Virus record (IMG/VR): IMGVR_UViG_2579779007_000007
Origin: a virus
Lineage: Duplodnaviria > Heunggongvirae > Uroviricota > Caudoviricetes
Direction: 5' to 3' (one strand)
DNA: 35,575 nt
Shown here: positions 4,947 to 21,903 of the stretch, one piece after another
How positions within the stretch are numbered: position 1 is the first letter of the stretch
Layout of the letters: each line of letters begins with the position of its first letter
Notes under the pieces: model-generated
Told to the model about the DNA's origin: nothing
Database searches by the model: none
What the model saw: only the letters and a program-made list of their open reading frames with translations
Position numbers and translations under genes: made by a program

Positions 4947-4969
4947 CTATCAAAATTTTTGTGTGAAAA
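4947..4969. repeat. direct repeat copy 1: CTATCAAAATTTTTG-TGTGAAAA
   Basis: Near-identical 22-23 bp copy at 5096..5117. A DnaA-box-like TTATCAACC sits between them at 4983..4991. Confidence 0.5.
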
Positions 4970-5095
4970 TGGCGGATAACGATTATCAACCTTTATAACC
5001 TATTATAGCACGGCGACCTTTTGATAATTCTTTTTAAATCATGCATTTACGGCGGTTTTTGGTGATTTTCTGGTTAAATAATATACAAGAATTTT

Positions 5096-7540: not shown

Positions 7541-7798
7541 TCAAATTCCTGTTGCTTCTACCATTTCACCATCAACCTGAACAAAGAATTTCAAATCAAC
7601 TTTATGAAGGGATTTGTATAGCTGGGCTATGGATAAGCCATGCTCATTTAATACCCGCTCTTTGTTCTCTTTACCTTTCGGTGCTTGATAGTACGCTTTT
7701 ACAATCGCTGCCAGTTGTTCACGATTAAAACGGGCAGGGCGACCGCGAGTAGCTTTAGTAGTCATAGTCATTTTCTCCAAATTAAAGTGAATGTTCAC
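7541..7798 (-). CDS. small DNA-binding protein (85 aa), HTH-like
   Basis: TRGRPARFNREQLAAIVKAYY...GLSIAQLYKSL pattern. Starts 2 nt after the stop of the upstream 201-aa gene. Confidence 0.5.
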   Translation of the reverse strand: MNIHFNLEKMTMTTKATRGRPARFNREQLAAIVKAYYQAPKGKENKERVLNEHGLSIAQLYKSLHKVDLKFFVQVDGEMVEATGI

Positions 7799-7800
7799 CT

Positions 7801-8406
7801 TTATTTAGAGGACTTACATTTTATCGGAAAAAGTTCTCCATCGTCAACCGACATAAAGAACTCTGCCTTAATCCCGTACTTCTTCAACCGTGAATAATAT
7901 GTACCCCGACTAATATCAACCTTGCGCAGCACTTCGAAGAACTCTTTAGGATTCCTGTAATAGTGGCTATATCGCACGTTAGCGAGTTCTACAAACAATT
8001 CCCTTGTATCACCATAGCCTTTCTTGAAAGCCACGTTACGATAGCGTGTAATGGCATGATTCAATCTCTTCTGTTTAAGCACTTCCCTGATCGGCTTCCA
8101 CTGCAACCGATAGATAGGACCGTCATCAATGCGATAATAACGCTTGATATCAAAATCAAACCAATCTCGGACTCTCCGAAACTCTGTATGTGATGTTCTA
8201 TGCTTCTTAAAGAAGTTGTGAACGTCTCTATAGCCATTATCACGGTAAAATTCTATTAAAATCTCTTTCGCTTCCTCACGGCTAAACCCAGATGTTGTGT
8301 AATCGGTCTTTAAGTGCTTATGTTTTACTGGCAAACGATATTCATGATCGGTACAACAAGACAAGGCTAATTCTACTTCATCTCTTTGTTGCTGATTAAT
8401 TAGCAT
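7801..8406 (-). CDS. hypothetical basic protein (201 aa) with C-terminal HTH-like segment
   Basis: Rich in R/K/Y. C-terminal ISRGTYYSRLKKYG is HTH-like. Divergent from the large terminase gene. Confidence 0.55.
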   Translation of the reverse strand: MLINQQQRDEVELALSCCTDHEYRLPVKHKHLKTDYTTSGFSREEAKEILIEFYRDNGYRDVHNFFKKHRTSHTEFRRVRDWFDFDIKRYYRIDDGPIYRLQWKPIREVLKQKRLNHAITRYRNVAFKKGYGDTRELFVELANVRYSHYYRNPKEFFEVLRKVDISRGTYYSRLKKYGIKAEFFMSVDDGELFPIKCKSSK

Positions 8407-8492: not shown

Positions 8493-10400
8493 ATGAAACT
8501 GATTTCTAATAAGGCAAAATTAAAAAAGATTCTCAGAAATGCAGCCAAATATATTACGCCACCGCCTAAACTCCTTCCATCGGAATGGTGCGAAGCGAAT
8601 CTAACGCTAGTCGATGGTCCTCGTGCTGGGGATAAAGTTAAATTGCTGTCATTTCAGAAAGGCATGATTGATGCTCCTTTCCTTGAGAAGAAAAAGAAGT
8701 ACGTTTTTTGTACGAGTGCGCAGATCGGAAAGACGACCATCATGTCAGGGATCATGTTTAACCAGATGGCAAACGATCCGTGTAATATCATTATCGGGCA
8801 AAGTACCGCTAAAGAAGTGGCTATGTACTTGAATACTAAGATCCGTCCTTCTATTGAAGCATGTCCGGCATTACAGGAAGTGGTAACAGATAAGAATGAT
8901 CGTAATGCGGTAAACAACAATAACCAGATTCAGCTAAAAACAAACCATTTCCTTTACATGGTTTCTTTGACCAGTCCTTCAAGTTTGCGCGGGCGTACTG
9001 CCAAGTTAGGGATTGTAGACGAATGCGACGCAGCAACAATCACCGAAGAAGGTTGCCCGGTGGCACTAACTGCAAACCGTTTAACTACCTTTGGTGATGA
9101 AGCTCGATTGATTGTTTCTAGTACCCCGACCAATAAGCTGGGAATCATTAACCAGCAATGGTTATCAAGTGATATGCGTATGTTTTTTGTTCCGTGTCCT
9201 CATTGCGGGGAACACCAGGTGATCGAGTGGGAAAACGTTCAATTTGAATGGCGTAACATTGATGGTAAGAACTTACCCGATCCTGATACCGCTCGTTATA
9301 TTTGCCCCCACTGTAAGAACGCATGGACAGAAGGGGAACGAATCAGGGCAGTAGCGCAAGGCGAGTGGAGAGCAACCCGTGAAAGTGAAGTAGCAGGATT
9401 CTGGATCAGTCGTCTGTATTCACCTTTCAGCACGATCCGCGCTTGTGTGGTTGATTTTAGTCATGCGTGGCAATCCTTTGATTTACAATCCTTTTTTAAC
9501 ACCGTGTTAGGCAAGGTATACGACGATCAGGACACGGCAGTAGAAGCAAATGAACTGGAACAACTCAAAACAGATGTTTCTATCGAGAATATCCCTGATG
9601 ACGTGATTTTCTTGTGTGCGGGTACTGACCAGCAATTAGATCGCGCAGAAACTACGATCATGGGCGTGGCAAAGGATAAGATTTATATTCTGGATCACCG
9701 CAGCTTTTACGATCATAACTGTGAACGATATGAATCACCTGTATGGGATAGATTAATCAACTTCCATAAAACCAAATTTACTACTGTATCGGGTGATCGT
9801 GTTCCTATGCTCGCCAGCTTCCTTGATACATCGAACGGTCGATTCACTCAAGCTGGATACCGTATTTGCGGCAAGTGGAAGAACTTACACGCTATCAAAG
9901 GTAGTTCTGCTGGTAACGCTCCGATCATTCCGGTTAAACCTACCCGCACAGGTGGTCATGAATTGCTTATGCTGGGCGTTAACGTTGGGAAATCCGCTGT
10001 TCGTGAAATGCTGGTTAGAAACCTGAAAGATAATCCTCATATTGGCTTAGAAATATCAGAAACCATTCCTGATGATTATCTCGATCAGCTTTTGAGTGAA
10101 TCCATCAAGCGTACTACTACTGGCGTGCGTTGGGTGAAAAATCCAGGTAGTACCCGAAACGAGGCTCTCGACTGTCTGGTTTATAGCTATGCTGCTTCTC
10201 GCTACGTTCTTTCAAAAATGTCATGGGATAAACTCATTGCAATGAAAGACAGCTTAAACCGTGTTGTCGAAGAATCCGTAGAAGCTCCTAAATCGCAATC
10301 TGACGAGCAAATCGAAGAAAATAAGCCAATCACACGACCACAACGTAAAAACATCGCCAGACGCCCAAATAGAGGCCGTAGCTGGGTAACATCGTTCTAA
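8493..10400 (+). CDS. terL: terminase large subunit, lambda gpA family
   Basis: 635 aa. Recalled gpA-family blocks: [45 protein letters not shown]. Confidence 0.9.
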
Positions 10401-10472
10401 TAACTCGCCGTCCTTCGGGGCGGCTTACTCCTAAATATTGTTAATCCAATAACAATTAAATAAGGGGTAATT

Positions 10473-10967
10473 ATGAGTTTAGAACTAATTCCCTTAGTAA
10501 TTCGTAAAGGTGAAAAAATCACGCTGGCGAATGAAGAGGGTGTAACAATTCAGGTAGGAAATAGTAAAGGTATCATTTATCAGGTTGATGATACTCCGGC
10601 TAATCATGAGATTAAAACCTTAGATTTTGCCGAAGGTAAATATACCATCGTAACCACTTTGGAAGAAGAACTGGTATCAATGCAGGAATTAACTGTTTTA
10701 CCAGTATTCGCCAAACAATCCAAAAAAGAATATCTGCGGGAAACTATCGCCTTAATCGAGCAAGTTATTTTCGCCCGTTTATCTGGGGACGAAGCCGCAT
10801 TATCTCAAATGACAGTGAAAGGGAATACTTTCGCCTATGAGTCATTAGGTGTTCTCCAGCAATTAAAGACTGATTATGAACGTCAGTTATCAAAATTAAT
10901 TCAAGCCGAACGACGTAAACAGGGAATTAGCCCGATTAAAAATATTAAAGTACGTCTTACGCGATAA
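10473..10967 (+). CDS. hypothetical head-associated protein (164 aa)
   Basis: Sits between terminase and portal, with the AAGGGGTAAT-type RBS common to the late genes. Confidence 0.55.
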   Translation: MSLELIPLVIRKGEKITLANEEGVTIQVGNSKGIIYQVDDTPANHEIKTLDFAEGKYTIVTTLEEELVSMQELTVLPVFAKQSKKEYLRETIALIEQVIFARLSGDEAALSQMTVKGNTFAYESLGVLQQLKTDYERQLSKLIQAERRKQGISPIKNIKVRLTR

Positions 10968-10977
10968 GGGGTAAATC

Positions 10978-12489
10978 ATGTTTAATCTTTTTCGACGCAA
11001 AAAGGCGGTAGAAACTCCAGTTAAAACTAATCACCGCCAACAACAACCAAAAATTTTCATCGACAAACAAGTAGAAAAATTTCAGAAAGATTTGTCTAAG
11101 CGTTCTTTGGGCTTAGTCGGTGATCGAATTGATGGGCAGCTTCAACAAGATACTATCACCGGAACGTTCAATAAGGCTCTCAAATCGAACGGTAAGCGCC
11201 TTTATGATCAGGGTCGTACTCTGGCCTTAAACACTTCCGTAGGCAGTCGATACACGCAATACATCACCGATATGGTGGTAGGTACTGGCCTAGATCCGAA
11301 GCCGTCAATCGTTAAATCAAATGGCAAACTTGATAGCGCACTGAATAAGCAGATCGAGAATGCTTTCTGGAAGTGGGCGCAGAATGCTAAACGCTTCTCT
11401 CGTAACGGTCGCTTTAACTTCCGTGAATTGCTGGTAATGGCTGAACGTGAGCGCGTTATGGGTGGTGAGTGTTTCATCGTTTTAACTAAAGAAAACAATG
11501 AGTTAAATGTTTCTATCCTGTCTGCTGATAAGTGCGACTGGACTCTCAACCGTGAAGTGAGCAAAGAACGTGCGATATATCAAGGTGTGGAGTATGCCGT
11601 AGAAACGATGAAGCCCGTGGCATACTGGTTTCGTAAAGTCAACCTACTGACTCAGACCTACACTGGTGATAACTATCGCGTCGATGCTTCGCAAGTATGC
11701 CATTATTATCAACCGCTTACCGCCGAATCCCTGCGTGGTGTGACTGACTTCCTGCCAGTGATTAAGGATATCGCACATCAAGATGCATTCCGCGAAACTG
11801 CGATCATCCAGAAACGCATTGCAGCTAGCTCTATGGGCTTTATCGAACGTCCGAAAGATTCTGGTGACGATTTTGATACTGGTGAAGAGGATGAACAATA
11901 TCAAGCGCCGGAAGTAGTACAGGACTTTGCACCGGGTACTATTCAGGAATTGCCGGAAGGGGCAACGATTAAGTCAATTCAGAGCGCCCAAAGTGGCGAT
12001 GACTTTAACAGCTTCAATGATGCGATGTTTACTAGCGTATCAATGGGCTTAGGCGTGTTTAAACAGGGCTTAACTGGTGATACCAGCCAGATCAACTACA
12101 GCGCAGCCCGCTACGGCGAATTGCTTCAACGCACACGAGTTAAAGCACTGCAAAACAAATTAATTGAAACAGTGGTATTGCCAATTTTTGAAGCATATCT
12201 ACGCCATTATTCCGCGCGTGGTATTGTTCCGATTCGTATTACTGCAATTCCGCATATTATCGACAACACTACTATTATTCGTCCGCGTTTTGAATCCGTC
12301 GATCCTATTAAAGACGTAAACGCTGATATTGCTTTAATTGATAAAGGACTTAAATCACGTACTGCCGTTATATTAGAACGTGGTGATGATCCTGAAAAAG
12401 TATTCTCAGAGATTCAAGCCGAAAAGAGCGCACTAAATATTATCGTTGATGGTGAGGGTGAAGAAAAAAATTCCCCAGCCGATCCCTAA
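10978..12489 (+). CDS. portal protein (lambda gpB-like)
   Basis: 503 aa, position after terminase, C-terminal block resembling lambda-type portals. Confidence 0.8.
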   Translation: MFNLFRRKKAVETPVKTNHRQQQPKIFIDKQVEKFQKDLSKRSLGLVGDRIDGQLQQDTITGTFNKALKSNGKRLYDQGRTLALNTSVGSRYTQYITDMVVGTGLDPKPSIVKSNGKLDSALNKQIENAFWKWAQNAKRFSRNGRFNFRELLVMAERERVMGGECFIVLTKENNELNVSILSADKCDWTLNREVSKERAIYQGVEYAVETMKPVAYWFRKVNLLTQTYTGDNYRVDASQVCHYYQPLTAESLRGVTDFLPVIKDIAHQDAFRETAIIQKRIAASSMGFIERPKDSGDDFDTGEEDEQYQAPEVVQDFAPGTIQELPEGATIKSIQSAQSGDDFNSFNDAMFTSVSMGLGVFKQGLTGDTSQINYSAARYGELLQRTRVKALQNKLIETVVLPIFEAYLRHYSARGIVPIRITAIPHIIDNTTIIRPRFESVDPIKDVNADIALIDKGLKSRTAVILERGDDPEKVFSEIQAEKSALNIIVDGEGEEKNSPADP

Positions 12490-12534: not shown

Positions 12535-14547
12535 ATGCTTAAATTTCGCCGCGATCTTAACGGTTACGGTGGAGTTATTAATGAAGGGCATAACGATCAA
12601 TACGAATTTGAAATTGCTTTCTCAAGTACACAGCCTTATCAGCGCCAATTTTGGGATGAGCAAAATCAAGAAATGGTGGTATTAGATGAAATTCTGGTAC
12701 ATACACCGGAAGCGGTTGATCTGTCTCGTCTGAATAATAACGCTCCGTTGCTGTTCAATCACAATTTCGATAATCACATTGGTGTAGTTTGTAACGCTCG
12801 AATCGATGCGGATAACGTAGGTCGTGCTCTGGTTAAGTTCTCCAAGCATGGGACTTTGGCTAATGATATTCGTAATAAAGTCATTGAAGGTACGATGGAA
12901 AAAATTTCGGTCGGCTATGACATTAAAGAATATCACATCGACTACACCAAAGGACAATTGATTGTTACTAAGTGGGCACCCTATGAACTCTCATTTGTCA
13001 CCGTTCCCGCAGACGATACGGTCGGTTTAAATCGCTCTCTAAATACTATCACAGTTAATTTGGAGGCTAAACGCGATATGACTAAAGAACAAATCGAAGA
13101 AATCAAAGAAGAACAAGAACCCGCTCAGGTTGAAGAAACTCCGGTAGAAGAAAATAAAGAACCGGAAGTTGAAGAAACTCAAGAGCGCCAAGTTGAAGAG
13201 AATAAAGAAGATGAAAATCTCGAAGACGGAAAAGACGCTGAACATCCTGAAAGTGTTGATGATGATAGTTCAACTGTTCGGGAAACAGAAGAAGTAAAAG
13301 AAGAACGTGAAGCTGCTCCGGTTGAAGAAGAAAAAACCGAGGAAGTGGCTGAACGTTCCGAAGAAGACGAATTAGAAATTCGCGAAATTGCACGCGAGTT
13401 AAATATTAACGAAGACGATGAAGAATTTAAACGCGCATTGGCAAATAAAGAAATTACGCCGGAAGCATTCCGCACTAAGGCACTAAATAACATTACCAAT
13501 GCTCAACGTAATAACGAACAAATTAATAAGGAACAAATCATGGAAAAAACTTTCGATCTTAATAACGTAATCCGCTCCCTGGTAGATGGCGACGTGCTCG
13601 GCGCTAACGAAGCTGAATATTCCGCAATGGCTGCTACTGCAACTATGCAGCGTGGTCGTGCTGCTCGTGGTGGCTCTGTATTCGTTCCGGCTGCTGCTAT
13701 GCGTGCTGCTGCTGATGGCAACACCAAAGCTAATCTGGTTGCTATCACTGACGAAAAACTGATGACTGAATCCTACATCGAAATGCTGATGCCTCAGAGT
13801 GTTTTAGGCCGCCTCGGGGTGACTGTTTATAGTGGCTTGACTTCTCCGACCGCTATTCCAAAAATGACTAAATCCAGCGTTGACGCTTTCGGATTCGTAG
13901 ATGAAAATGGCGCTGCCCCCGAGTCACATGCGGAATTTTCGAACGTGAAACTGTCTCCGAAAACTTTTGCTGGTGGCAACCCGATCAGCCGTCAGTCGCT
14001 GAAAACCGTTCCGGGCATCGCTACCCTGATCACCGATCACATTAACAAATCTGTTCGGATCAAACTGGAACAACTGATTCTGTCTGATAAAGAAAATGCT
14101 CGTGGTCCGGCTGGTCTGGTTAAGCAACTGGTAGACGCTAGCCGCGTTACCAAGAAAGCTGCTTTCTCTTATAAAGATTTCCTCAAGGAGATTGCTCAGC
14201 TTACGGACGCTGGCGTTCCTGCTCAGGCGATCAAGTTTGCGATGAGCGGTGCAACTGCTGCTGAACTGGAATCTACCCTGAAAGATAACGGCGTTTCCGG
14301 TTATATCATCGAAAACGGCAAACTGGCTGGTTACGAAGTAGTTACTTCTGGCGTTATTCCGGCAGATCACATCGTTCTGGGTGACTTCTCCGGTATTACC
14401 ATCGGTGAGTGGGGCGGTCTGGAACTTGACATGGATCTAACTACATATCGGGATCGTGGGGCGGTAGTGCCTAGAATCTTTGTAGATTTGGACTACGTTG
14501 TAGCACAGCCGGAAGCGCTGAAAGTTCTTCACATCTCCGCTGACTGA
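12535..14547 (+). CDS. fused prohead protease (HK97/S78-like) - acidic scaffold-like linker - HK97-fold major capsid protein
   Basis: 670 aa. Residues 1-170 match the S78 prohead protease pattern, residues about 180-330 are E-rich, the C-terminal 340 aa are HK97-MCP-like. Ends with TGA. Confidence 0.8.
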   Translation: MLKFRRDLNGYGGVINEGHNDQYEFEIAFSSTQPYQRQFWDEQNQEMVVLDEILVHTPEAVDLSRLNNNAPLLFNHNFDNHIGVVCNARIDADNVGRALVKFSKHGTLANDIRNKVIEGTMEKISVGYDIKEYHIDYTKGQLIVTKWAPYELSFVTVPADDTVGLNRSLNTITVNLEAKRDMTKEQIEEIKEEQEPAQVEETPVEENKEPEVEETQERQVEENKEDENLEDGKDAEHPESVDDDSSTVRETEEVKEEREAAPVEEEKTEEVAERSEEDELEIREIARELNINEDDEEFKRALANKEITPEAFRTKALNNITNAQRNNEQINKEQIMEKTFDLNNVIRSLVDGDVLGANEAEYSAMAATATMQRGRAARGGSVFVPAAAMRAAADGNTKANLVAITDEKLMTESYIEMLMPQSVLGRLGVTVYSGLTSPTAIPKMTKSSVDAFGFVDENGAAPESHAEFSNVKLSPKTFAGGNPISRQSLKTVPGIATLITDHINKSVRIKLEQLILSDKENARGPAGLVKQLVDASRVTKKAAFSYKDFLKEIAQLTDAGVPAQAIKFAMSGATAAELESTLKDNGVSGYIIENGKLAGYEVVTSGVIPADHIVLGDFSGITIGEWGGLELDMDLTTYRDRGAVVPRIFVDLDYVVAQPEALKVLHISAD

Positions 14548-14676
14548 ACTAGCGTAGAACCTTCTGAACCTTCCCCCGATTTGGGGGAAGAAAATCTGAT
14601 TCCATCTCAGGAAGAAGAAGTTCAAGAGGTTACGGCGAAAGCCACAGTTAAAAAACAACGTAAAACTAAAGAATAA
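14548..14676 (+). other. in-frame 42-codon extension after the capsid TGA (candidate readthrough segment)
   Basis: Same frame as 12535..14547, no ATG. Encodes TSVEPSEPSPDLGEENLIPSQEEEVQEVTAKATVKKQRKTKE, then TAA. Confidence 0.45.
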
Positions 14677-14681
14677 TAATT

Positions 14682-14710
14682 AGCCCTGCCTTAACGGTGG
14701 GGCTTTTTTG
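14682..14710 (+). terminator. intrinsic terminator after the capsid extension
   Basis: AGCCCTGCC-ttaac-GGTGGGGCT followed by TTTTTT. Near-identical copy at 20632..20660. Confidence 0.7.
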
Positions 14711-15448: not shown

Positions 15449-16282
15449 ATGAATATTACACAAGATAACTTAGATATTTTCACTGGATCACATGTTGAAG
15501 TGTCGATCTCTAACCAGATAGACAATCAGGTCGACTTTTTCGATCCTAGCTTTAGTTCTATGGAGAACATCGCAGCATTCCCTACGCTAACCGAATCCAC
15601 AGAGATAGAAACTCTGGAAGAGTACGATCAGGACGCTACGGGGAAACTTGCTGGTTATCGTAGACTGGAACCGACAACACTCACATTAAACCGTGTTCTT
15701 GACGATGAACATCAAGCAATGTTGATGAAAGCGGTAGAGGATAAAACACCTTTACGCTTCCGTATGTTCTATGTTGTGAACTCTGGCTATAGTGCTGCTA
15801 ACACTGGTTACTATGTCATCTATGACGCTTATGTCACTAGTCACAAAACCCGTGGCGCAGATAACAAAGCTGTAACACTGGAATTTAAACTTGAACCAGA
15901 TGGCGGGATTTTGGCAAGGGGTATAGCGACCGAGGGAAAAATTCTGCGACAAGGGGATTATGGCGTAGGTGCAGGTGTACATCCATTCACGGGTCCAATT
16001 GATAGTGATGCTTTAGCAGGAAACCGTTTCGTAACTTACAAGGGAACTGCTAGCGGTAATCCATACTCAGCCGACACATCATTAATTCACCTTCAAGCTA
16101 ATGAGCATGGCGCATGGCAATTAACCTGTAATACTTCCGGTGCACCACGTTTACGTGTCCGAAATATTCAGGAAAACGGTCGCTCTGAATGGATCAAGGT
16201 ATATTCCACCAATGAGAAACCGACACCTAGCGAAATTGGCGCAGTGGCTAAGACTGACCGGATCGATTTCGGCGAATACTAA
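15449..16282 (+). CDS. tail-tube-like protein with C-terminal fibre-like extension (paralog of the 20030 gene)
   Basis: 277 aa. N-terminus (NLDIFTGSHV...GKL...LTLT) aligns with the 156-aa protein at 20030. C-terminus carries KPTPSEIGA, also present in the tail fibre. Confidence 0.55.
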   Translation: MNITQDNLDIFTGSHVEVSISNQIDNQVDFFDPSFSSMENIAAFPTLTESTEIETLEEYDQDATGKLAGYRRLEPTTLTLNRVLDDEHQAMLMKAVEDKTPLRFRMFYVVNSGYSAANTGYYVIYDAYVTSHKTRGADNKAVTLEFKLEPDGGILARGIATEGKILRQGDYGVGAGVHPFTGPIDSDALAGNRFVTYKGTASGNPYSADTSLIHLQANEHGAWQLTCNTSGAPRLRVRNIQENGRSEWIKVYSTNEKPTPSEIGAVAKTDRIDFGEY

Positions 16283-16364: not shown

Positions 16365-19300
16365 ATGCAATCAATCCAATTTAAACGCACACAAACGGCT
16401 GGTAAAAAGCCGACGCCGGAACAATTATCACAGGGTGAGATCGCCTTACAACTGGCGGACCATGTGATTTACACCAAAGACAAAAATAATAACGTAGTCC
16501 AAATTAGTGTTTCTCCAGAAAAACACGCTGAACTTAACACTAAAGTAGACAATAACAAAACTAGCACTGACCGTGTTATTGCTTCCAACAAACAAGAGGC
16601 CGCTAATAATCTGGCTAGTGCTAAAGCTGAACTGAATCAGACTATTACCACGAAAGATACAGCGACCAATAAGCGCATTGATGCTACCAACACCACTGTT
16701 AGTAACTTAACCCAGACAGTTACGGCAAATAAAACCGATGCCGACACTAAGATCAATAACCTTACGGGGACCGTATCTGCGAATAAGACCGCAATTGAAA
16801 GAACCGTTGCCGCAAACAAATCTGATGCAGATAGCAAACATGCAGCTTTAACGAAAACGGTCACTGACAATAACACCGCGATTAACAACAAGGTTAATAC
16901 CACTAACACCAACGTTAGCAACTTAACTAAAACTGTTACTGCAAATAAAACCGATGCAGATAACAAAATTTCTAGCTTAACTAGCGCGGTTGCAGCTAAC
17001 AAGACAGCGATCGAAAAGACTGTTTCCGACAATAAGAAAGACGCGGATACTAAGATTACCAATCTTACTGGCACTGTTAATAGCAACCATACCGCAATTA
17101 ACAACAAGGTAGACCAGAATAAATCTTCTACTGATGCCGCAATTGCAGCCGCTAACAAACGAATTGATGGTATTGAAGGTAGCAATGATGCTCTTTACAT
17201 CAAGAAGAATACCAATACTAAGCATGGTGGGTATCTGTTAAGCAAGACAGCTAACTATCTGGAAGACCAGACATCACGAGATCTTAACTACTTTGGTGCT
17301 TTCCGTACCAATGGTCAAGATGGACTCATGGATCTAACTCTTAACGTTCCTCACTCTTCCGGTAAAGCGCACGGTCGCGGATTTACTTTCCGTTATGCGT
17401 CTGGTGGATCTCGTGTTGAAACCTATGGTTTTGATAGAGAAGGACAGAAGAACTTTAGCTATAAGATGTATCACGAAGGTGATAAACCGACTCCTGCTGA
17501 AATTGGCGCATATACCAAAGGCGAAATTGATAAGATGTTTATTAAAAATGTCACAATGTCTGTTCCTTCTGGTAGTGAATCCCGTGCTTATTTCAAGATT
17601 GCTACGGCTACGATCCCACAAAATGGTCGTATGGTAATGCTTCGTATCTTCGGTGGTAATGGTTATAACGTTAACTCCTATGATCAGGTTGATTTCCTTG
17701 AAATTGTTATCCGTAGTGGTAACGATAGACCTAAAGGTGTTAGTGTTGCTGCATATCGTCGAAATGCTCTTAACGTTCATCAAGTATTTGCGGTTAATAC
17801 TTCCGGTGATAACTACGACATTTACGTTAACTACGGTCGTTATACTGATAACGTTATTGTCGAATATGGTAAGACTAGCGGTGTTTCACTGACTGTTCAT
17901 GACACCCCAGATATGACTAACGTTAAGCCGTCTACTGGTGTTACAGATGGACGTGTTATTACAATGTTCAATACCGAAAACAAGGCCGGAACGTTGATGT
18001 TTGATAATAACGGTCAGGGAACATATGATATTGTCAGTTTGAATAACGATTCAGGTACTGGTAAAAAATATCTGCGTAAATTCCGTAGTAAAGCCGCAGA
18101 AACAATCTGGCATGAAACTGTTCAAGGTAACGTATATCGTTTAGCGACTGGCACTACCGATTCTAGCGAAGTTCTACGAATCACTGGTCGCACTATGTAT
18201 ACTGGTAAAGCTGTTTTTGATGCCGGATCTAATACTATTCGTATGCAGCGACCGAATGGTCAAAGTAACTATTTGGAATATTGGGATAACCGTAACGGTG
18301 CAAATAAACGTCAAGGTTGGATCGGTTATGGAAATGCCGATACTAACGCTATGCAGATGTATAACGATAGCGGTACTAACAATATTGGCTTAGAACAAAG
18401 CGGTCAAATCTCTCTGAATACTGGATCTACTAAAGTAGTTTATACCAACGGCGAGTATGTATCTGCTAACTCAAATGCATTCCGTATGATTTACGGTAAC
18501 TATGGTGCATTCTGGCGTAATGATGGTCAAAACGTATATTTTCTGTCTACTGCCGAAAATGATAAATTTGGTGGTTGGAACGGCTATCGTCCATTCATTT
18601 ACAATCTGGGTAGCGGTAATGTTACTTTGGGTGGTGATGGTAACGAAGGTGCATTAGTCTTAGAACGTGCAAGTCGTGCAGCTCGTTTTGCTGGAAACGC
18701 TTTCATCAAAGGTCAACATTTAACACTTGATGCTGGTGCTGGACAATCCCGCGACTATTTCCGTTTTAACCATTGGGGTGATAGCAATAACGCTCGCGAC
18801 AACATTCTATATCTCGAAGACAGCAAAGGACGCCATTTCAGCACCGAACGTAATATGGCTACAGGTGCATTAAAAGCATACTTCTTAGGAGATCTTGAAG
18901 TTGCTGGTCAAATGCGATGGGGTAAGAATACCGGACAATCTAGCTTCAATATTCGTGCATGGGGTAATGATACTCGTAAACAAGTATTAGAATGCGCAGA
19001 TGAAAGCGGCTGGCATTTCTACACACAGCGTGCTGGCGGTCCTGATACTACCGCAATCGAGTTTAGCGTAAACGGTAAAATTAACGCTCCCCGACTGTCT
19101 ATTAGTCAGGATGCAACCATTCCTAAGTTTAATAGCGGTTTTGGTGTTGGTGTTGCTAACGGATTGGGTGGAAATTCTATTGTTTTAGGCGATAGTGATA
19201 CTGGATTTAAACAAAACGGTGATGGTGTCCTTGATACCTACGCTAATAACGTTAATGTTGTTCGCCATACGTCAGGCGGTGTTACATTTAACCGTCGTGT

Positions 19301-19973
19301 TGTTGTTGCTAACAAAAATGGTTTAGGTTATTCCGATATCTCTGATGTAACTCGTGACCGTGCTCCATTCCTGGTTAACATGGATAGTATTAAGGGGTCT
19401 GCTGCATATTTCCCGATCATCGCTGGTTACAGTAACTTAGGTGATGTTGGTTATCGTCAGTCCTTCGAGTTTGGTTGGACGGGTAGCGGGTCGAATAGCA
19501 CATGGCGTACTGGTATTATCCGTATGCGTGGCGATAACGCCAACGGGCAGCAAGCACGCTGGGAATTTACTATGGATGGTGATTTTACCTGCCCCCGTAA
19601 CGGTAGCTTTAACGATGTTTACATTCGCTCTGACTCCCGTTTGAAGATTAACAAGGAAGAATTACAGGACGGCGCATTAGAGAAAGTAAACTCCCTGAAA
19701 GTCTACACCTACGATAAAGTTAAATCTCTTTCAGATGACACAGTGGTTAAACGCGAAGTAGGTATTATTGCTCAGGATCTGGAAGAAGTGTTGCCGGAAG
19801 CAGTAGGTATTCAATCCACCGAAGATCCAGAACAACCGGAAGCAATTAAGACTATTTCTAACTCTGCTGTTAATGCCTTGATTATTAAAGCGATTCAGGA
19901 AATGGACGCCAAATATCAAGCTAAGATTGAAGCATTGACTAAAGAGATTGCCGAACTCAAAGCAACTAAATAA
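16365..19973 (+). CDS. long tail fibre with C-terminal S74 intramolecular-chaperone domain
   Basis: 1202 aa. Repetitive shaft, KPTPAEIGAY motif, C-terminal YIRSDSRLKINKEEL... matching the autoproteolytic chaperone domain of T5 pb1 and endosialidase-type fibres. Confidence 0.85.
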   Translation: MQSIQFKRTQTAGKKPTPEQLSQGEIALQLADHVIYTKDKNNNVVQISVSPEKHAELNTKVDNNKTSTDRVIASNKQEAANNLASAKAELNQTITTKDTATNKRIDATNTTVSNLTQTVTANKTDADTKINNLTGTVSANKTAIERTVAANKSDADSKHAALTKTVTDNNTAINNKVNTTNTNVSNLTKTVTANKTDADNKISSLTSAVAANKTAIEKTVSDNKKDADTKITNLTGTVNSNHTAINNKVDQNKSSTDAAIAAANKRIDGIEGSNDALYIKKNTNTKHGGYLLSKTANYLEDQTSRDLNYFGAFRTNGQDGLMDLTLNVPHSSGKAHGRGFTFRYASGGSRVETYGFDREGQKNFSYKMYHEGDKPTPAEIGAYTKGEIDKMFIKNVTMSVPSGSESRAYFKIATATIPQNGRMVMLRIFGGNGYNVNSYDQVDFLEIVIRSGNDRPKGVSVAAYRRNALNVHQVFAVNTSGDNYDIYVNYGRYTDNVIVEYGKTSGVSLTVHDTPDMTNVKPSTGVTDGRVITMFNTENKAGTLMFDNNGQGTYDIVSLNNDSGTGKKYLRKFRSKAAETIWHETVQGNVYRLATGTTDSSEVLRITGRTMYTGKAVFDAGSNTIRMQRPNGQSNYLEYWDNRNGANKRQGWIGYGNADTNAMQMYNDSGTNNIGLEQSGQISLNTGSTKVVYTNGEYVSANSNAFRMIYGNYGAFWRNDGQNVYFLSTAENDKFGGWNGYRPFIYNLGSGNVTLGGDGNEGALVLERASRAARFAGNAFIKGQHLTLDAGAGQSRDYFRFNHWGDSNNARDNILYLEDSKGRHFSTERNMATGALKAYFLGDLEVAGQMRWGKNTGQSSFNIRAWGNDTRKQVLECADESGWHFYTQRAGGPDTTAIEFSVNGKINAPRLSISQDATIPKFNSGFGVGVANGLGGNSIVLGDSDTGFKQNGDGVLDTYANNVNVVRHTSGGVTFNRRVVVANKNGLGYSDISDVTRDRAPFLVNMDSIKGSAAYFPIIAGYSNLGDVGYRQSFEFGWTGSGSNSTWRTGIIRMRGDNANGQQARWEFTMDGDFTCPRNGSFNDVYIRSDSRLKINKEELQDGALEKVNSLKVYTYDKVKSLSDDTVVKREVGIIAQDLEEVLPEAVGIQSTEDPEQPEAIKTISNSAVNALIIKAIQEMDAKYQAKIEALTKEIAELKATK
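16640..17170 (+). repeat. intragenic tandem repeats encoding two ~69-aa shaft repeats
   Basis: Repeated NLT.TVTANKTDAD.KI..LT..V.ANKTAIE.TV. The low-complexity repeats create the spurious antisense ORF 16637..17185. Confidence 0.6.
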
Positions 19974-20029: not shown

Positions 20030-20500
20030 ATGTCTCAATTTAATGATATTTTTACTGGTGGTCTGGTAAGTCTGTTCTATCACGCTGATACCACTAACAC
20101 CGCTCTCGATCACTCCGGTTACGAAGAAATTAAAGAGTGTGCTGGTTTTCCTGAAACTGGTATCGAGCGCGGTACTGTAGAAGTTAAATCCTTCTCTTCT
20201 CAGTATAACCGTAAGCTGGTAGGGAAGCTGAACGTTCCTGATCTGACTCTTACGGTGAATTACATCCCCGGGGAGAGTGTCCATGAGAAGCTCATAAAGG
20301 CTGCCGAAGACGGTACTCGAATTCAGATTAAGATTGAATACTATGTTGATGCAGCAAAACAGACTGGTATTCGCACCGCTTTCAACGGCTTCATTTCTAA
20401 AGTTGCTATGAACGGTGGCGATGAAGAAGTGGTAACTAAAGAGTTTACCTTCGCGGTGGACGGAAAGCCGATCAAACAGGAAATCTTCACTGCCGGATGA
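20030..20500 (+). CDS. major tail tube protein (putative)
   Basis: 156 aa, upstream of the chaperone and tape-measure genes. Paralogous to the N-domain of 15449..16282. Ends with TGA. Confidence 0.6.
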   Translation: MSQFNDIFTGGLVSLFYHADTTNTALDHSGYEEIKECAGFPETGIERGTVEVKSFSSQYNRKLVGKLNVPDLTLTVNYIPGESVHEKLIKAAEDGTRIQIKIEYYVDAAKQTGIRTAFNGFISKVAMNGGDEEVVTKEFTFAVDGKPIKQEIFTAG

Positions 20501-20626
20501 ACTAACGAAGAACTTCCTTTAATAGAACCGGAACCACTACCGGAACATGAAGCGGTGGTGATTCCAGAAGTAGAAGAAGTTACGGCGAAAGCCACAGCAA
20601 AACGAGGCCGCAAGGCTAAGAATTAA
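20501..20626 (+). other. in-frame 41-codon extension after the tail-tube TGA (candidate readthrough segment)
   Basis: Same frame as 20030..20500, no in-frame ATG. Encodes TNEELPLIEPEPLPEHEAVVIPEVEEVTAKATAKRGRKAKN, then TAA. Confidence 0.45.
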
Positions 20627-20631
20627 TTTTA

Positions 20632-20660
20632 AGCCCTGCCTTAATGGTGGGGCTTTTTTA
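20632..20660 (+). terminator. intrinsic terminator after the tail-tube extension
   Basis: AGCCCTGCC-ttaat-GGTGGGGCT followed by TTTTTT. Confidence 0.7.
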
Positions 20661-20674
20661 TTGGAGTAATCAAA

Positions 20675-21181
20675 ATGGCAAATGTCGTTAAAGTTCCTGG
20701 CTGGATCGGGTCATCTGCTGTATCGGTGACGGGTAAGCGATGGATGAAAGAAGCACTAACAGCTTTAAAAGTTCCGGCTCCGCGTAATATGTCGGCAATG
20801 GCTGGTCGTGGTATGGATACGGTTGTAGCTACTGCTGCATGGTCTACTTCATTGGGTAATAACTGGGGGGTAACTGCTTCAAACTATCCTGTTTCCGGTA
20901 TGCAAAGCAAAGGATCTATGGAGAACCCCGAAAACGTGGGCGTAGGGCGTCTGATTGGCGTTATCGTTGGTCAATTCAATGGCGGTACTCCTACTATGGC
21001 TGTATATCTCCAGAACGGTAGAGCGGGGAATATAACCGTTAATTTGGGTGGTGCTACTGTCACTGTTCCTTATAACAGTATGCAAAGTGGTTTTCATTAC
21101 TATTGGTTAAGCAATCCTCCGGCTGCTTTCCTCAATAACATTAAGAAGACTGGCACTAAGCAGACTTTGAAAATCTCTTAA
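20675..21181 (+). CDS. hypothetical tail-associated protein (168 aa)
   Basis: ORF with RBS GGAG, located between tail tube and chaperone genes. Confidence 0.5.
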   Translation: MANVVKVPGWIGSSAVSVTGKRWMKEALTALKVPAPRNMSAMAGRGMDTVVATAAWSTSLGNNWGVTASNYPVSGMQSKGSMENPENVGVGRLIGVIVGQFNGGTPTMAVYLQNGRAGNITVNLGGATVTVPYNSMQSGFHYYWLSNPPAAFLNNIKKTGTKQTLKIS

Positions 21182-21223: not shown

Positions 21224-21532
21224 ATGAATATTAATGAAATGCTGAAAGCTCTTTCTCCGAAACGCGAATCTCTGACCATCGGTGGATTCACTTTCTATGC
21301 TCGCCCTATGTCAGTAAAAGAATTTAACGAACATGTTTTCAATACCGATAAAGATGACCGTGATGAACGTTCTATTCTTCGTTGTATTGAAGATGAAGAC
21401 GGTAAACCAGTATTTGAATCTATGGAACAAGTTAAGGCACTGTATACTAACGTCCGCAGTGAATTAATCGGTTTGGTTGCTCAAGCGTCATTGATGCAAG
21501 ATCCGGCAGTAATTGAAAACGAGGTAAAGTAA
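21224..21532 (+). CDS. tail assembly chaperone (gpG-like, putative)
   Basis: 102 aa acidic protein immediately upstream of the tape measure region. Confidence 0.5.
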   Translation: MNINEMLKALSPKRESLTIGGFTFYARPMSVKEFNEHVFNTDKDDRDERSILRCIEDEDGKPVFESMEQVKALYTNVRSELIGLVAQASLMQDPAVIENEVK

Positions 21533-21561
21533 ACCCGCTTCTGTGTTTCTATTTCCGGCAA

Positions 21562-21903
21562 ATGATGAGATCGGGGCTTAGTAAAGATGAAATGGATAAT
21601 ATGCCAATCACTCTGTTTTGGAAATTATATATTTTCGACACCTACTTAGAACCACAAAGCCCCGCGTTTCATGATATGCAGAATGCGATGTTGCAATATT
21701 CCATGTATATGACGTCGCAAGGAATGACACGCGAAACTGCACGCAAACTCAAGCCTAGCCAATTCCAATTAATTAGAGAAGAAAAACTCTTTAAAACTAA
21801 AGAAGAACTGGAAGAAATTGCACGCAAGAAAGAAGAAGAACGTAAAGCGGCAATGCTGAACATGTTTGATCCATCTTTGCTTGAGAAACTCAGAAGCGGT
21901 TAA
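21562..21903 (+). CDS. tail assembly protein (gpT-like position, putative)
   Basis: 113 aa. Its frame is open from 21517, overlapping the end of the previous gene by about 15 nt, but no canonical slippery heptamer is visible. Confidence 0.4.
   Translation: MMRSGLSKDEMDNMPITLFWKLYIFDTYLEPQSPAFHDMQNAMLQYSMYMTSQGMTRETARKLKPSQFQLIREEKLFKTKEELEEIARKKEEERKAAMLNMFDPSLLEKLRSG

Follow-up and report, generated by a model that had tools for sequence, protein, structure and literature searches.

A conserved module of UGA, RNA helix and in-frame extension behind the capsid and tail-tube genes of an Escherichia coli prophage is consistent with programmed UGA readthrough

The UGA that ends the coat gene of phage Q-beta is read through by approximately 1 in 15 ribosomes, occasionally with insertion of Trp, and the extended product (A1) is present at ~12 copies per virion; the extension starts with a Pro-rich, flexible or polyproline segment (PMC8067240). 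A comparable arrangement is described here for IMG/VR virus record IMGVR_UViG_2579779007_000007, a prophage of Escherichia coli of 35,575 nt (the whole stretch is referred to below as the window), in which a fused protease-scaffold-capsid gene and a tail tube gene both stop at a UGA that is followed by an in-frame extension, a conserved RNA helix and a terminator-like hairpin. An earlier note had named the capsid stop as a candidate for programmed UGA readthrough. The likeness to A1 lies in the E. coli host, the leaky UGA of a coat gene and a minor, C-terminally extended coat protein, the last two being predicted in the present case. The stop context of the Q-beta coat gene is likewise UGA-A. 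Q-beta is a single-stranded RNA phage with a folded readthrough domain of ~196 aa and no described 3' stem, whereas the module described here belongs to a double-stranded DNA tailed prophage, encodes a low-complexity tail of 28–45 aa, occurs as a cassette on both capsid and tube genes, and has a conserved downstream helix. Membership of the A1 family was rejected: no homology and no Pfam match were found, and an exhaustive search with the extension (a weak query) returned 0 matches.

Recoding at the 3' end of structural genes has been described for tailed phages as frameshifting. In the Listeria phages PSA, A118 and A500, cps and tsh are both recoded to give minor C-terminally extended subunits, and the shift site of tsh, CCC_UGA, abuts the UGA (PMC5009743). 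In gene 10B of T7/T3 and in the Cps and Tsh of PSA, A118 and A500 the 3' end of major capsid and tail genes is recoded; the gene arrangement of the present locus fits this pattern, and extended minor forms of both proteins would be predicted. Another frameshift-made long tail protein is gp17.1* of SPP1. In this class a +1 or -1 shift is made and many members add folded Ig-like or FN3 domains, whereas here the extension lies in the zero frame, no shift is needed and no domain was detected. Membership of the frameshift class was rejected on the zero frame of the extension, the other two frames being closed in all variants. Stop-codon readthrough in the capsid or tail genes of a tailed phage was not described in any of the literature searched, the coverage of which was incomplete.

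Downstream RNA stimulators of UGA readthrough were described by Firth et al. (2011) in alphaviruses, furo-, pomo-, tobra- and pecluviruses and Drosophila kelch, with a spacer of 7–9 nt, a stem of 11–12 base pairs (bp) and a less conserved, partly structured loop (PMC3159437). Readthrough was stimulated up to 10-fold in alphaviruses and stimulation was inferred in several plant virus genera, with synonymous-site conservation and compensatory changes as support (PMC3159437). The present module resembles this class in its UGA, its 10-nt spacer, its 9–12 bp stem with compensatory changes and its variable enclosed region. It differs in that the described systems involve eukaryotic ribosomes and eRF1, UGA-C contexts and a stimulation that was measured, whereas release factor 2 (RF2) of bacteria, a UGA-A context and a predicted stimulator would be involved here. 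The bacterial selenocysteine insertion sequence (SECIS; fdhF type) recodes UGA by means of a hairpin ~11 nt downstream and needs an apical loop that binds SelB. That loop is conserved in SECIS elements, whereas the apical region of the present module is hypervariable and has no Rfam match.

The capsid gene of the window encodes 670 aa and ends ...GCT GAC TGA. Peptidase_S78 was matched at residues 40–162 and Phage_capsid (HK97-type) at residues 412–666, with a Glu-rich, scaffold-like middle, so the gene is a protease-scaffold-capsid fusion, as the earlier note had it. Also borne out by translation was its statement that the same frame stays open beyond the TGA at 14545–14547 for 42 codons free of ATG (TSVEPSEPSPDLGEENLIPSQEEEVQEVTAKATVKKQRKTKE), to a TAA at 14674 with a strong terminator close behind; the TAA is doubled, and the terminator-like hairpin (AGCCCTGCCTTAACGGTGGGGCT, 14682–14704, or to 14710 with its T-run) follows. 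No Pfam family, and hence no domain, was detected in the 41–42 aa extensions of the window. Internal initiation within the extension was rejected, as there is no ATG, and the TTG and GTG codons have no conserved position and no Shine-Dalgarno sequence.

The tube gene ends GGA TGA, followed by 41 in-frame codons (TNEELPLIEPEPLPEHEAVVIPEVEEVTAKATAKRGRKAKN) with no start codon, to a TAA at 20624–20626. Its terminator (20631–20655) is near-identical to that of the capsid module, and the two strongest terminators of the late region are those behind the capsid and tube extensions. The stop context, TGA ACT A, is identical at both genes, and DNA-level homology between the two 3' regions extends from TGAACTA to the terminator and takes in GTTACGGCGAAAGCCACAG, which both share unchanged. 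Stop usage was counted for 32 plus-strand open reading frames (ORFs), with 29 TAA, 1 TAG and 2 TGA; for the 17 late genes the counts were 15 TAA and 2 TGA, and both TGA genes carry the extension. These results agree with the earlier note on the near-universal use of TAA in the window, on the tube gene as the only other TGA-ended late gene with a homologous extension, and on the shared TGA-ACT-A. A minus-strand ORF at 7541–7798 (85 aa, GTG start), a candidate gene, was the only other examined ORF ending in TGA. As the two modules are related copies and not independent draws, the case rests on comparative data. The coordinates of all features are given in Table 1.

Table 1. Features of the capsid and tube modules; positions are those of the window.
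Feature	Position	Strand	Basis
Protease-scaffold-major capsid fusion gene, TGA-ended	12535..14547	+	ORF and translation; Pfam Peptidase_S78 and Phage_capsid; PHROG 617 major head protein
Proposed recoding site, UGA then A	14545..14548	+	TGA in 49/49 distinct modules; +4 base A in all
Spacer, 10 nt, UGA to closing helix	14548..14557	+	Same spacing in all linker types
In-frame extension, 42 codons: acidic Pro/Glu-rich linker, VTAKATVKK core, Lys/Arg tip	14548..14673	+	Only frame 0 open; lengths multiples of 3; pN/pS 0.55
Closing helix, 5' arm (AACCTTCTGAAC)	14558..14569	+	11/12 positions pair with 14620–14631; covariation
Inner hairpin CUUCCCCC-GAUUU-GGGGGAAG, encodes PSPDLGEE	14570..14590	+	Minimum free energy fold
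Closing helix, 3' arm (GTTCAAGAGGTT)	14620..14631	+	Pairing with 5' arm; covariation
Near-invariant core ACGGCGAAAGCC, GGC-GAAA-GCC mini-hairpin, encodes TAKA	14632..14643	+	Near-identical in all modules, including synonymous sites
Tandem TAA TAA closing the extension	14674..14679	+	Sequence
Intrinsic terminator-like hairpin and T-run	14682..14710	+	Second-strongest plus-strand site in 8–27 kb
Tail tube gene (lambda-like tail tube protein), TGA-ended	20030..20500	+	Pfam Phage_TTP_12 above cut-off, Phage_TTP_11 just below; PHROG 158
Second module copy: UGA-A, 41-codon extension, TAA	20498..20626	+	18 distinct tube variants, all TGA ACT
Tube-module closing helix, 5' arm (AACTTCCTTTAA)	20511..20522	+	Pairs with 20570–20581
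Tube-module closing helix, 3' arm	20570..20581	+	Pairing with 5' arm
Tube-module near-invariant core ACGGCGAAAGCC	20582..20593	+	Identical element in both modules
Intrinsic terminator-like hairpin and T-run	20631..20661	+	Strongest plus-strand site in 8–27 kb

Relatives of the extension were gathered by a peptide-pattern scan of IMG/VR, a DNA-pattern scan of IMG/VR for the invariant core, and the same pattern in metagenomes. The resulting set held 129 instances and 49 distinct DNAs from E. coli prophages, viral contigs and metagenomes, placed behind a capsid gene of lineage A (25), a capsid gene of lineage B (6) or a tube gene (18). Lineage B is a second protease-scaffold-capsid fusion, the capsid domain of which is 38% identical to that of lineage A. 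The stop before the extension was TGA in every distinct DNA (49/49), with A at +4 and T at +6 in all; the next codon was ACT in 41 and AAT in 8, and the codon preceding the TGA was variable (GAA, GGA, GAC, GGT, TCT, GCT, GAT, GAG). Ten length classes were observed (84, 99, 108, 117, 120, 123, 126, 129, 132 and 135 nt), all divisible by 3. Summed over the 49 variants, stops numbered 0 in frame 0, 104 in frame +1 and 194 in frame +2, and the shifted frames were never open. The ratio of nonsynonymous to synonymous polymorphism (pN/pS), taken along a minimum spanning tree, was 0.55 in frame 0 vs. 0.94 and 1.04 in the shifted frames, a modest signal, as is expected of a disordered tail. The linker varied freely but was Pro/Glu-rich throughout, and the Lys/Arg tip was kept by means of differing codons and residues (KKQRKTKE, KKERKTKAK, KKVGRPPKAK, KRGRKAKN, KRSRKAKD, KRGRKPKE). 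A different tube allele (59% identity) in relatives has a TAA stop and no extension.

The lineage B phages share DNA homology with the window from position 14541, which lies 4 nt ahead of the TGA, and over 6.6 kb downstream (92.5%). Their portal and capsid bodies show no DNA-level homology to the window; the TGA and the frame are nevertheless kept. As homology starts 4 bases before the TGA, a mosaic junction at the capsid stop has preserved both. In three lineage B phages (L071, L045 and L121), homology to the window was seen to resume at 14541–14545 and to run for kilobases at 89–92% (80% in L045). In L115 (~7900–8000) and L112, which are metagenomic, the TGA and extension are kept and the terminator hairpins differ (AAGCCATCCTTCGGGGTGGCTT; AGCCCTGTCCTTGTGATGGGGCT); extension and terminator can therefore be uncoupled.

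The TGA and in-frame extension were thus conserved in all 49 distinct modules and in three gene contexts, and no frame-disrupted homolog was present among them. All the predictions that programmed readthrough makes at the level of sequence, and that could be examined, were borne out. Taken together, the frame, TGA, length and pN/pS results are hard to explain unless ribosomes read frame 0. From the conserved TGA, the conserved frame, the coding signature and the conserved helix described below, programmed UGA readthrough, with extended products that are made and selected for, is considered the likely reading, in agreement with the earlier note. The same data bear on a decaying relic, in which a sense codon of an ancestral longer gene would have mutated to TGA and left an unused tail. 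No homolog with a sense codon was found and the extension was seen solely behind a stop, as a relic would have it; however, decay is absent from 49 diverged variants in three unrelated gene contexts and the TGA never drifts to the preferred TAA, so this origin is very improbable.

The second line of evidence is an RNA helix that closes over the linker region. Its anchors are common to all linker types: the 5' arm starts at +14 (the U of the UGA being +1), after the 10-nt spacer, and the 3' arm ends directly before the invariant core A[C/A]GGCGAAAGCC. The stem is 9–12 bp and the region enclosed is 4 to ~50 nt. At least 6 sequence versions keep the pairing by compensatory changes, namely AACCTTCTGAAC / GTTCAAGAGGTT (the capsid module of the window), AACCATCTG / CAGACGGTT, AATTGCCGGAA / TTCCGGTAGTT, AATCGCCGGAA / TTCCGGTGATT, AACTTC / GAAGTT (the tube module of the window, from 20511 onward with positions up to 20581) and AACAACC / GGTTGTT. 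Pairing in register was 7.9 of 9 positions vs. 2–5 in shifted registers, and observed combinations of arms paired better than unobserved ones (7.9 vs. 6.1). With the UGA and the core as anchors of the alignment, 90.5% of cells were paired (23–48% in slid controls), 6 of 9 helix pairs changed on both sides, and doubly changed cells numbered 41 vs. 13.4 ± 4.9 after shuffling (0 of 500 shuffles reached 41); in these tests the anchoring was chosen by the analyst, the sequences are related, and some arms are shared. Mean ensemble pair probability of the helix was 0.83, and exceeded 0.5 in 45 of 48 modules. Against dinucleotide shuffles, with the terminator included, folding gave z = -5.1 and -3.3; against synonymous recodings of the same peptide, z for the three capsid types was -3.6, -2.9 and -3.4, and for the two tube types it was -1.9 and -1.2. 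The stem of the inner hairpin is nucleotide-invariant in all long capsid variants, and the sole change seen lies in the loop. The helix was absent from the earlier note, and its conservation strengthens the description of the readthrough as programmed.

In the relatives with KK(V/A)GRPPKAK tips (L003, L009, L011, L014), a hairpin GGTGG-GACGT-CCACC is replaced by GGCGG-GTCGC-CCGCC, a compensatory change that consists of Val-to-Ala and a synonymous Pro change. This suggests, from the sequences, that the extension of these variants has a further small RNA hairpin close to its end.

The strength of the RNA signal is also what would be expected of an untranslated, structured 3' region with terminator, serving as mRNA stabiliser, processing site or attenuator for the two most highly expressed late genes, with an open frame that is incidental. 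The DNA-level homology of the copies, terminator included, the dinucleotide-shuffle folding scores, the invariance of core and inner hairpin at synonymous sites, a helix covariation that includes amino-acid-altering compensation (e.g. AATTG/TAGTT to AATCG/TGATT) and the possession of the late region's two strongest terminators all fit such a cassette. It leaves unexplained why frame 0 holds no stops vs. 104 and 194 in the others, why ten lengths are divisible by 3, why TGA is kept in 49 of 49 modules of a TAA-using phage, and why pN/pS is lowered in frame 0 only. The Lys/Arg tip, moreover, is retained with different codons, and L115 keeps the extension with a different terminator. An untranslated cassette is consequently judged unlikely.

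A hairpin placed ~10–11 nt after a UGA also resembles the spacing of the E. coli SECIS. Dedicated decoding of the UGA, as selenocysteine through a SECIS-like hairpin, by a suppressor tRNA or under a reassigned code, was considered on that account. The apical structure is wholly different among the five linker types (a GAAA tetraloop, a GAUUU loop and others), so there is no conserved loop for SelB to bind, and there is neither an Rfam match nor a tRNA gene in the window. Long genes contain no internal in-frame TGA under table 11, and among late genes TGA occurs at two ends only. Dedicated decoding of any of these kinds is barely credible.

The position of the terminators raises a further alternative, in which readthrough is selected for regulation in cis and not for the peptide. 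Ribosomes that pass the UGA would reach the TAA, which lies 2–5 nt ahead of the terminator stem; they would unfold the helix and cover the 5' arm of the terminator, and so tune downstream transcription or mRNA stability. The extension always ends a few nt from the terminator stem, the linker residues are weakly constrained, and the terminators lie mid late operon, ahead of genes that still need expression. Proximity, however, is not special to the two modules, as other genes of the phage also have hairpins right after their stops, and readthrough of a few per cent would give a small regulatory range only. All variants retain the VTAKATAK core and the Lys/Arg tip, though in differing codons, and distant relatives encode similar tails directly, on every subunit. 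A purely regulatory role is rated as quite unlikely.

For programmed readthrough with a selected peptide, the following mechanism is proposed. The module would act as a portable 3' recoding cassette on the major capsid and tail-tube genes of a temperate E. coli siphophage. The majority of ribosomes would halt at the UGA and release the normal subunit, and a minority would decode it as sense, at 14545–14547 and at 20498–20500. UGA is the leakiest stop in E. coli, and an A after the UGA reportedly favours leakiness; the UGA-A context would set the leakiness of the site. The likeliest decoder is near-cognate Trp-tRNA(Trp) outcompeting RF2, by analogy with the known leakiness of UGA in E. coli, where readthrough in a reporter was ~2% at 37°C and ~4% at 25°C under competition of Trp-tRNA(Trp) with RF2 (PMC10570021). 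With Trp inserted, the junctions would read ...LHISAD-W-TSVEPSEPSPDLGEENLIPSQEEEVQEVTAK in the capsid protein and ...IFTAG-W-TNEELPLIEPEPLPEHEAVVIPEVEEVTAK in the tube protein, and the ribosomes would go on for 28–45 codons to the TAA. With the UGA in the A site, the helix at +14 would be placed at the mRNA entrance of the ribosome, and it probably biases the competition against RF2 and so raises the leakiness.

The product would be a sub-stoichiometric capsid or tube subunit with a flexible, acidic Pro/Glu linker and a VTAKATAK(K/R) Lys/Arg-rich tip. Assuming T=7 for the capsid, which is a guess from a genome of 35–44 kb, and readthrough of a few per cent, roughly 5–20 extended subunits per head and a handful per tail would be expected. 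C-termini point outward in the HK97-fold coat proteins that are used for display (T7 10B, P22) and in lambda-type tube proteins; by this analogy, the tails are probably on the outside of head and tail. At a guess, the cationic tip could bind polyanions (lipopolysaccharide, capsule, mucus, DNA) and aid adhesion of the virion, which is the least secure part of the account. The AT-hook family PF02178 was matched, weakly, by the KKVGRPPKAK variant only, which is not that of the window (E = 0.039; 14.2 bits vs. a cut-off of 17.4).

Several results weigh against this interpretation. Several stretches do not vary even at synonymous sites, and some of the compensatory changes alter amino acids, so selection at the RNA level is strong and may be the main constraint. 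The linker is weakly constrained in its amino acids, with 24, 27 and 27 polymorphic sites at the three codon positions; the lack of a third-position excess is attributed to the variants being mosaics of replaced segments, and the minimum-spanning-tree pN/pS is more informative than the codon-position test. The extension sequences are related and mosaic, and the counts are not those of independent events. No homolog with a sense codon for the TGA was recovered: a word-indexed search with the capsid C-terminus, W and the extension returned 4 partial capsids, matched in the capsid part only. An exhaustive phmmer search of 1.84 billion representatives with the 42-aa extension gave 0 matches, which is uninformative rather than negative, given the little power of a low-complexity query. 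Both the TGA and the module are missing from DCP80, the closest isolated phage. Finally, no 3' structure is known to stimulate near-cognate readthrough in bacteria, and none was found in the literature searched.

The host is E. coli, as the earlier note had assumed: positions 8493–12489 of the window, a terminase-portal segment of 4 kb, are 100% identical to the chromosomes of strains H2 and CE0007a, and relatives are present in 55 of 5,426 complete E. coli genomes (~1%). In strain H2 the prophage adjoins a truncated hicB, and both the capsid and the tube gene are closed at the TGA by the Prokaryotic Genome Annotation Pipeline (PGAP), with the extension unannotated. Positions 1–351 of the window (cf. 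4548–4859 of L042) hold a truncated hicB antitoxin gene, and integration is apparently in or beside hicB of a hicAB locus. There are no tRNA genes in the window, and thus no suppressor tRNA; Rfam gave no match in the window at gathering thresholds and only noise at E ≤ 10 around the site. No near-identical phage was found by megablast among 50,697 phage records. The best isolated relative was DCP80 (L001; PQ671644.1), with capsid and tube proteins 40–46% identical and TAA stops. The 141-kb record of DCP80 is assigned to Straboviridae (genus Gaprivervirus), yet its first 25 kb resemble the window prophage, with a lambda-like terminase, a fused protease-capsid, a tube and a tape-measure module; the record may be misclassified or chimeric. 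Intermediate relatives were absent from species-representative genomes, which held only capsids 24–28% identical, in Betaproteobacteria and other Gammaproteobacteria.

The tube protein of the window matches positions 15–158 of the 376-position profile of PHROG 158, some members of which evidently bear large C-terminal additions. Upstream of the fibre gene, a protein of 277 aa (15449–16282) matches PHROG 158 with its N-terminal domain (E = 5.5e-8) and is a second tube-like protein; its DCP80 counterpart is 698 aa. Positions 16365–19973 encode a T4-like long tail fibre of 1,202 aa with Gp34_trimer and a Peptidase_S74 chaperone domain. A gp38-like adhesin gene (20675–21181) is split from the fibre gene by the tube gene and its terminator, an odd order for a siphovirus tail module. 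Two small ORFs in the 0 and -1 frames lie between the tube region and the tape measure gene (21224–21903). GTA AAG TAA closes the first of them, and from 21517 the -1 frame is open, so that A_AAG with the stop, at 21526–21532, is a candidate G/GT tail-chaperone frameshift site.

In the wider capsid family, capsids 40–47% identical to that of the window end in TAA. Three of the relatives (L035, L037, L041) encode short Ala/Glu/Lys tails directly (GTPAEAKAAKQ, GTPAEAPAEAKAGK and GEAEAGETRKAK). In L036, L038, L039, L040 and DCP80, the -1 frame is open downstream of an A-run that lies at conserved Glu-Lys or Val-Lys codons; the frame holds a Lys-rich tail and ends in a TAA, which in L036/L039/L040 and in L038 lies just before a terminator. 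The tail reads TSLRKAKAKAKAKAETAE after GAAAAAC in L036 (~4950–5030) and L040; that of L039 is the same less 12 nt, after an A8 run; that of L038 (~8975–9065) reads NGSLINTGEQASPAKVKKPRALKVK after GTAAAAAC; and that of DCP80 (7770–7900) reads ...DAAPVKKSKSASG after GAAAAG. These -1 tails are candidate extensions by -1 frameshifting or transcriptional slippage, analogous to the readthrough tail. The distribution suggests, without proving it, that direct encoding, -1 shifting and UGA readthrough are three routes to an equivalent tail in the family. A similar indifference to decoding mode is described for Ig-like extensions in the review of Atkins et al. (PMC5009743).

As a broader proposal, put forward tentatively and with less than even confidence, the module may be the first bacterial signal for structure-assisted near-cognate stop readthrough. 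It would be a self-contained, recombining cassette (UGA-A, 10-nt spacer, closing helix, linker, basic tip and terminator) that phages transfer among unrelated structural genes and by which a set fraction of the head and tail subunits is decorated, in a wider capsid family that appears to reach an equivalent basic tail by direct encoding, by -1 frameshifting or by UGA readthrough.

For the capsid and tail genes of phages, frameshifting is the only known form of recoding at the 3' end, and readthrough of a coat-gene UGA is known solely from small RNA phages. If the reading is correct, a new decoding mode would be added for double-stranded DNA phages, in the form of a cassette on the capsid and tube genes of a tailed E. 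coli prophage, and the 3' stem-loops that stimulate readthrough in eukaryotic viruses would have a counterpart in bacteria. Whether mRNA structure can bias the competition between RF2 and tRNA would become directly testable in E. coli. Annotation pipelines miss the extension, as both genes are closed at the TGA by PGAP. On both the head and the tail of the phage, the cassette would also serve as a ready-made site for low-copy display.

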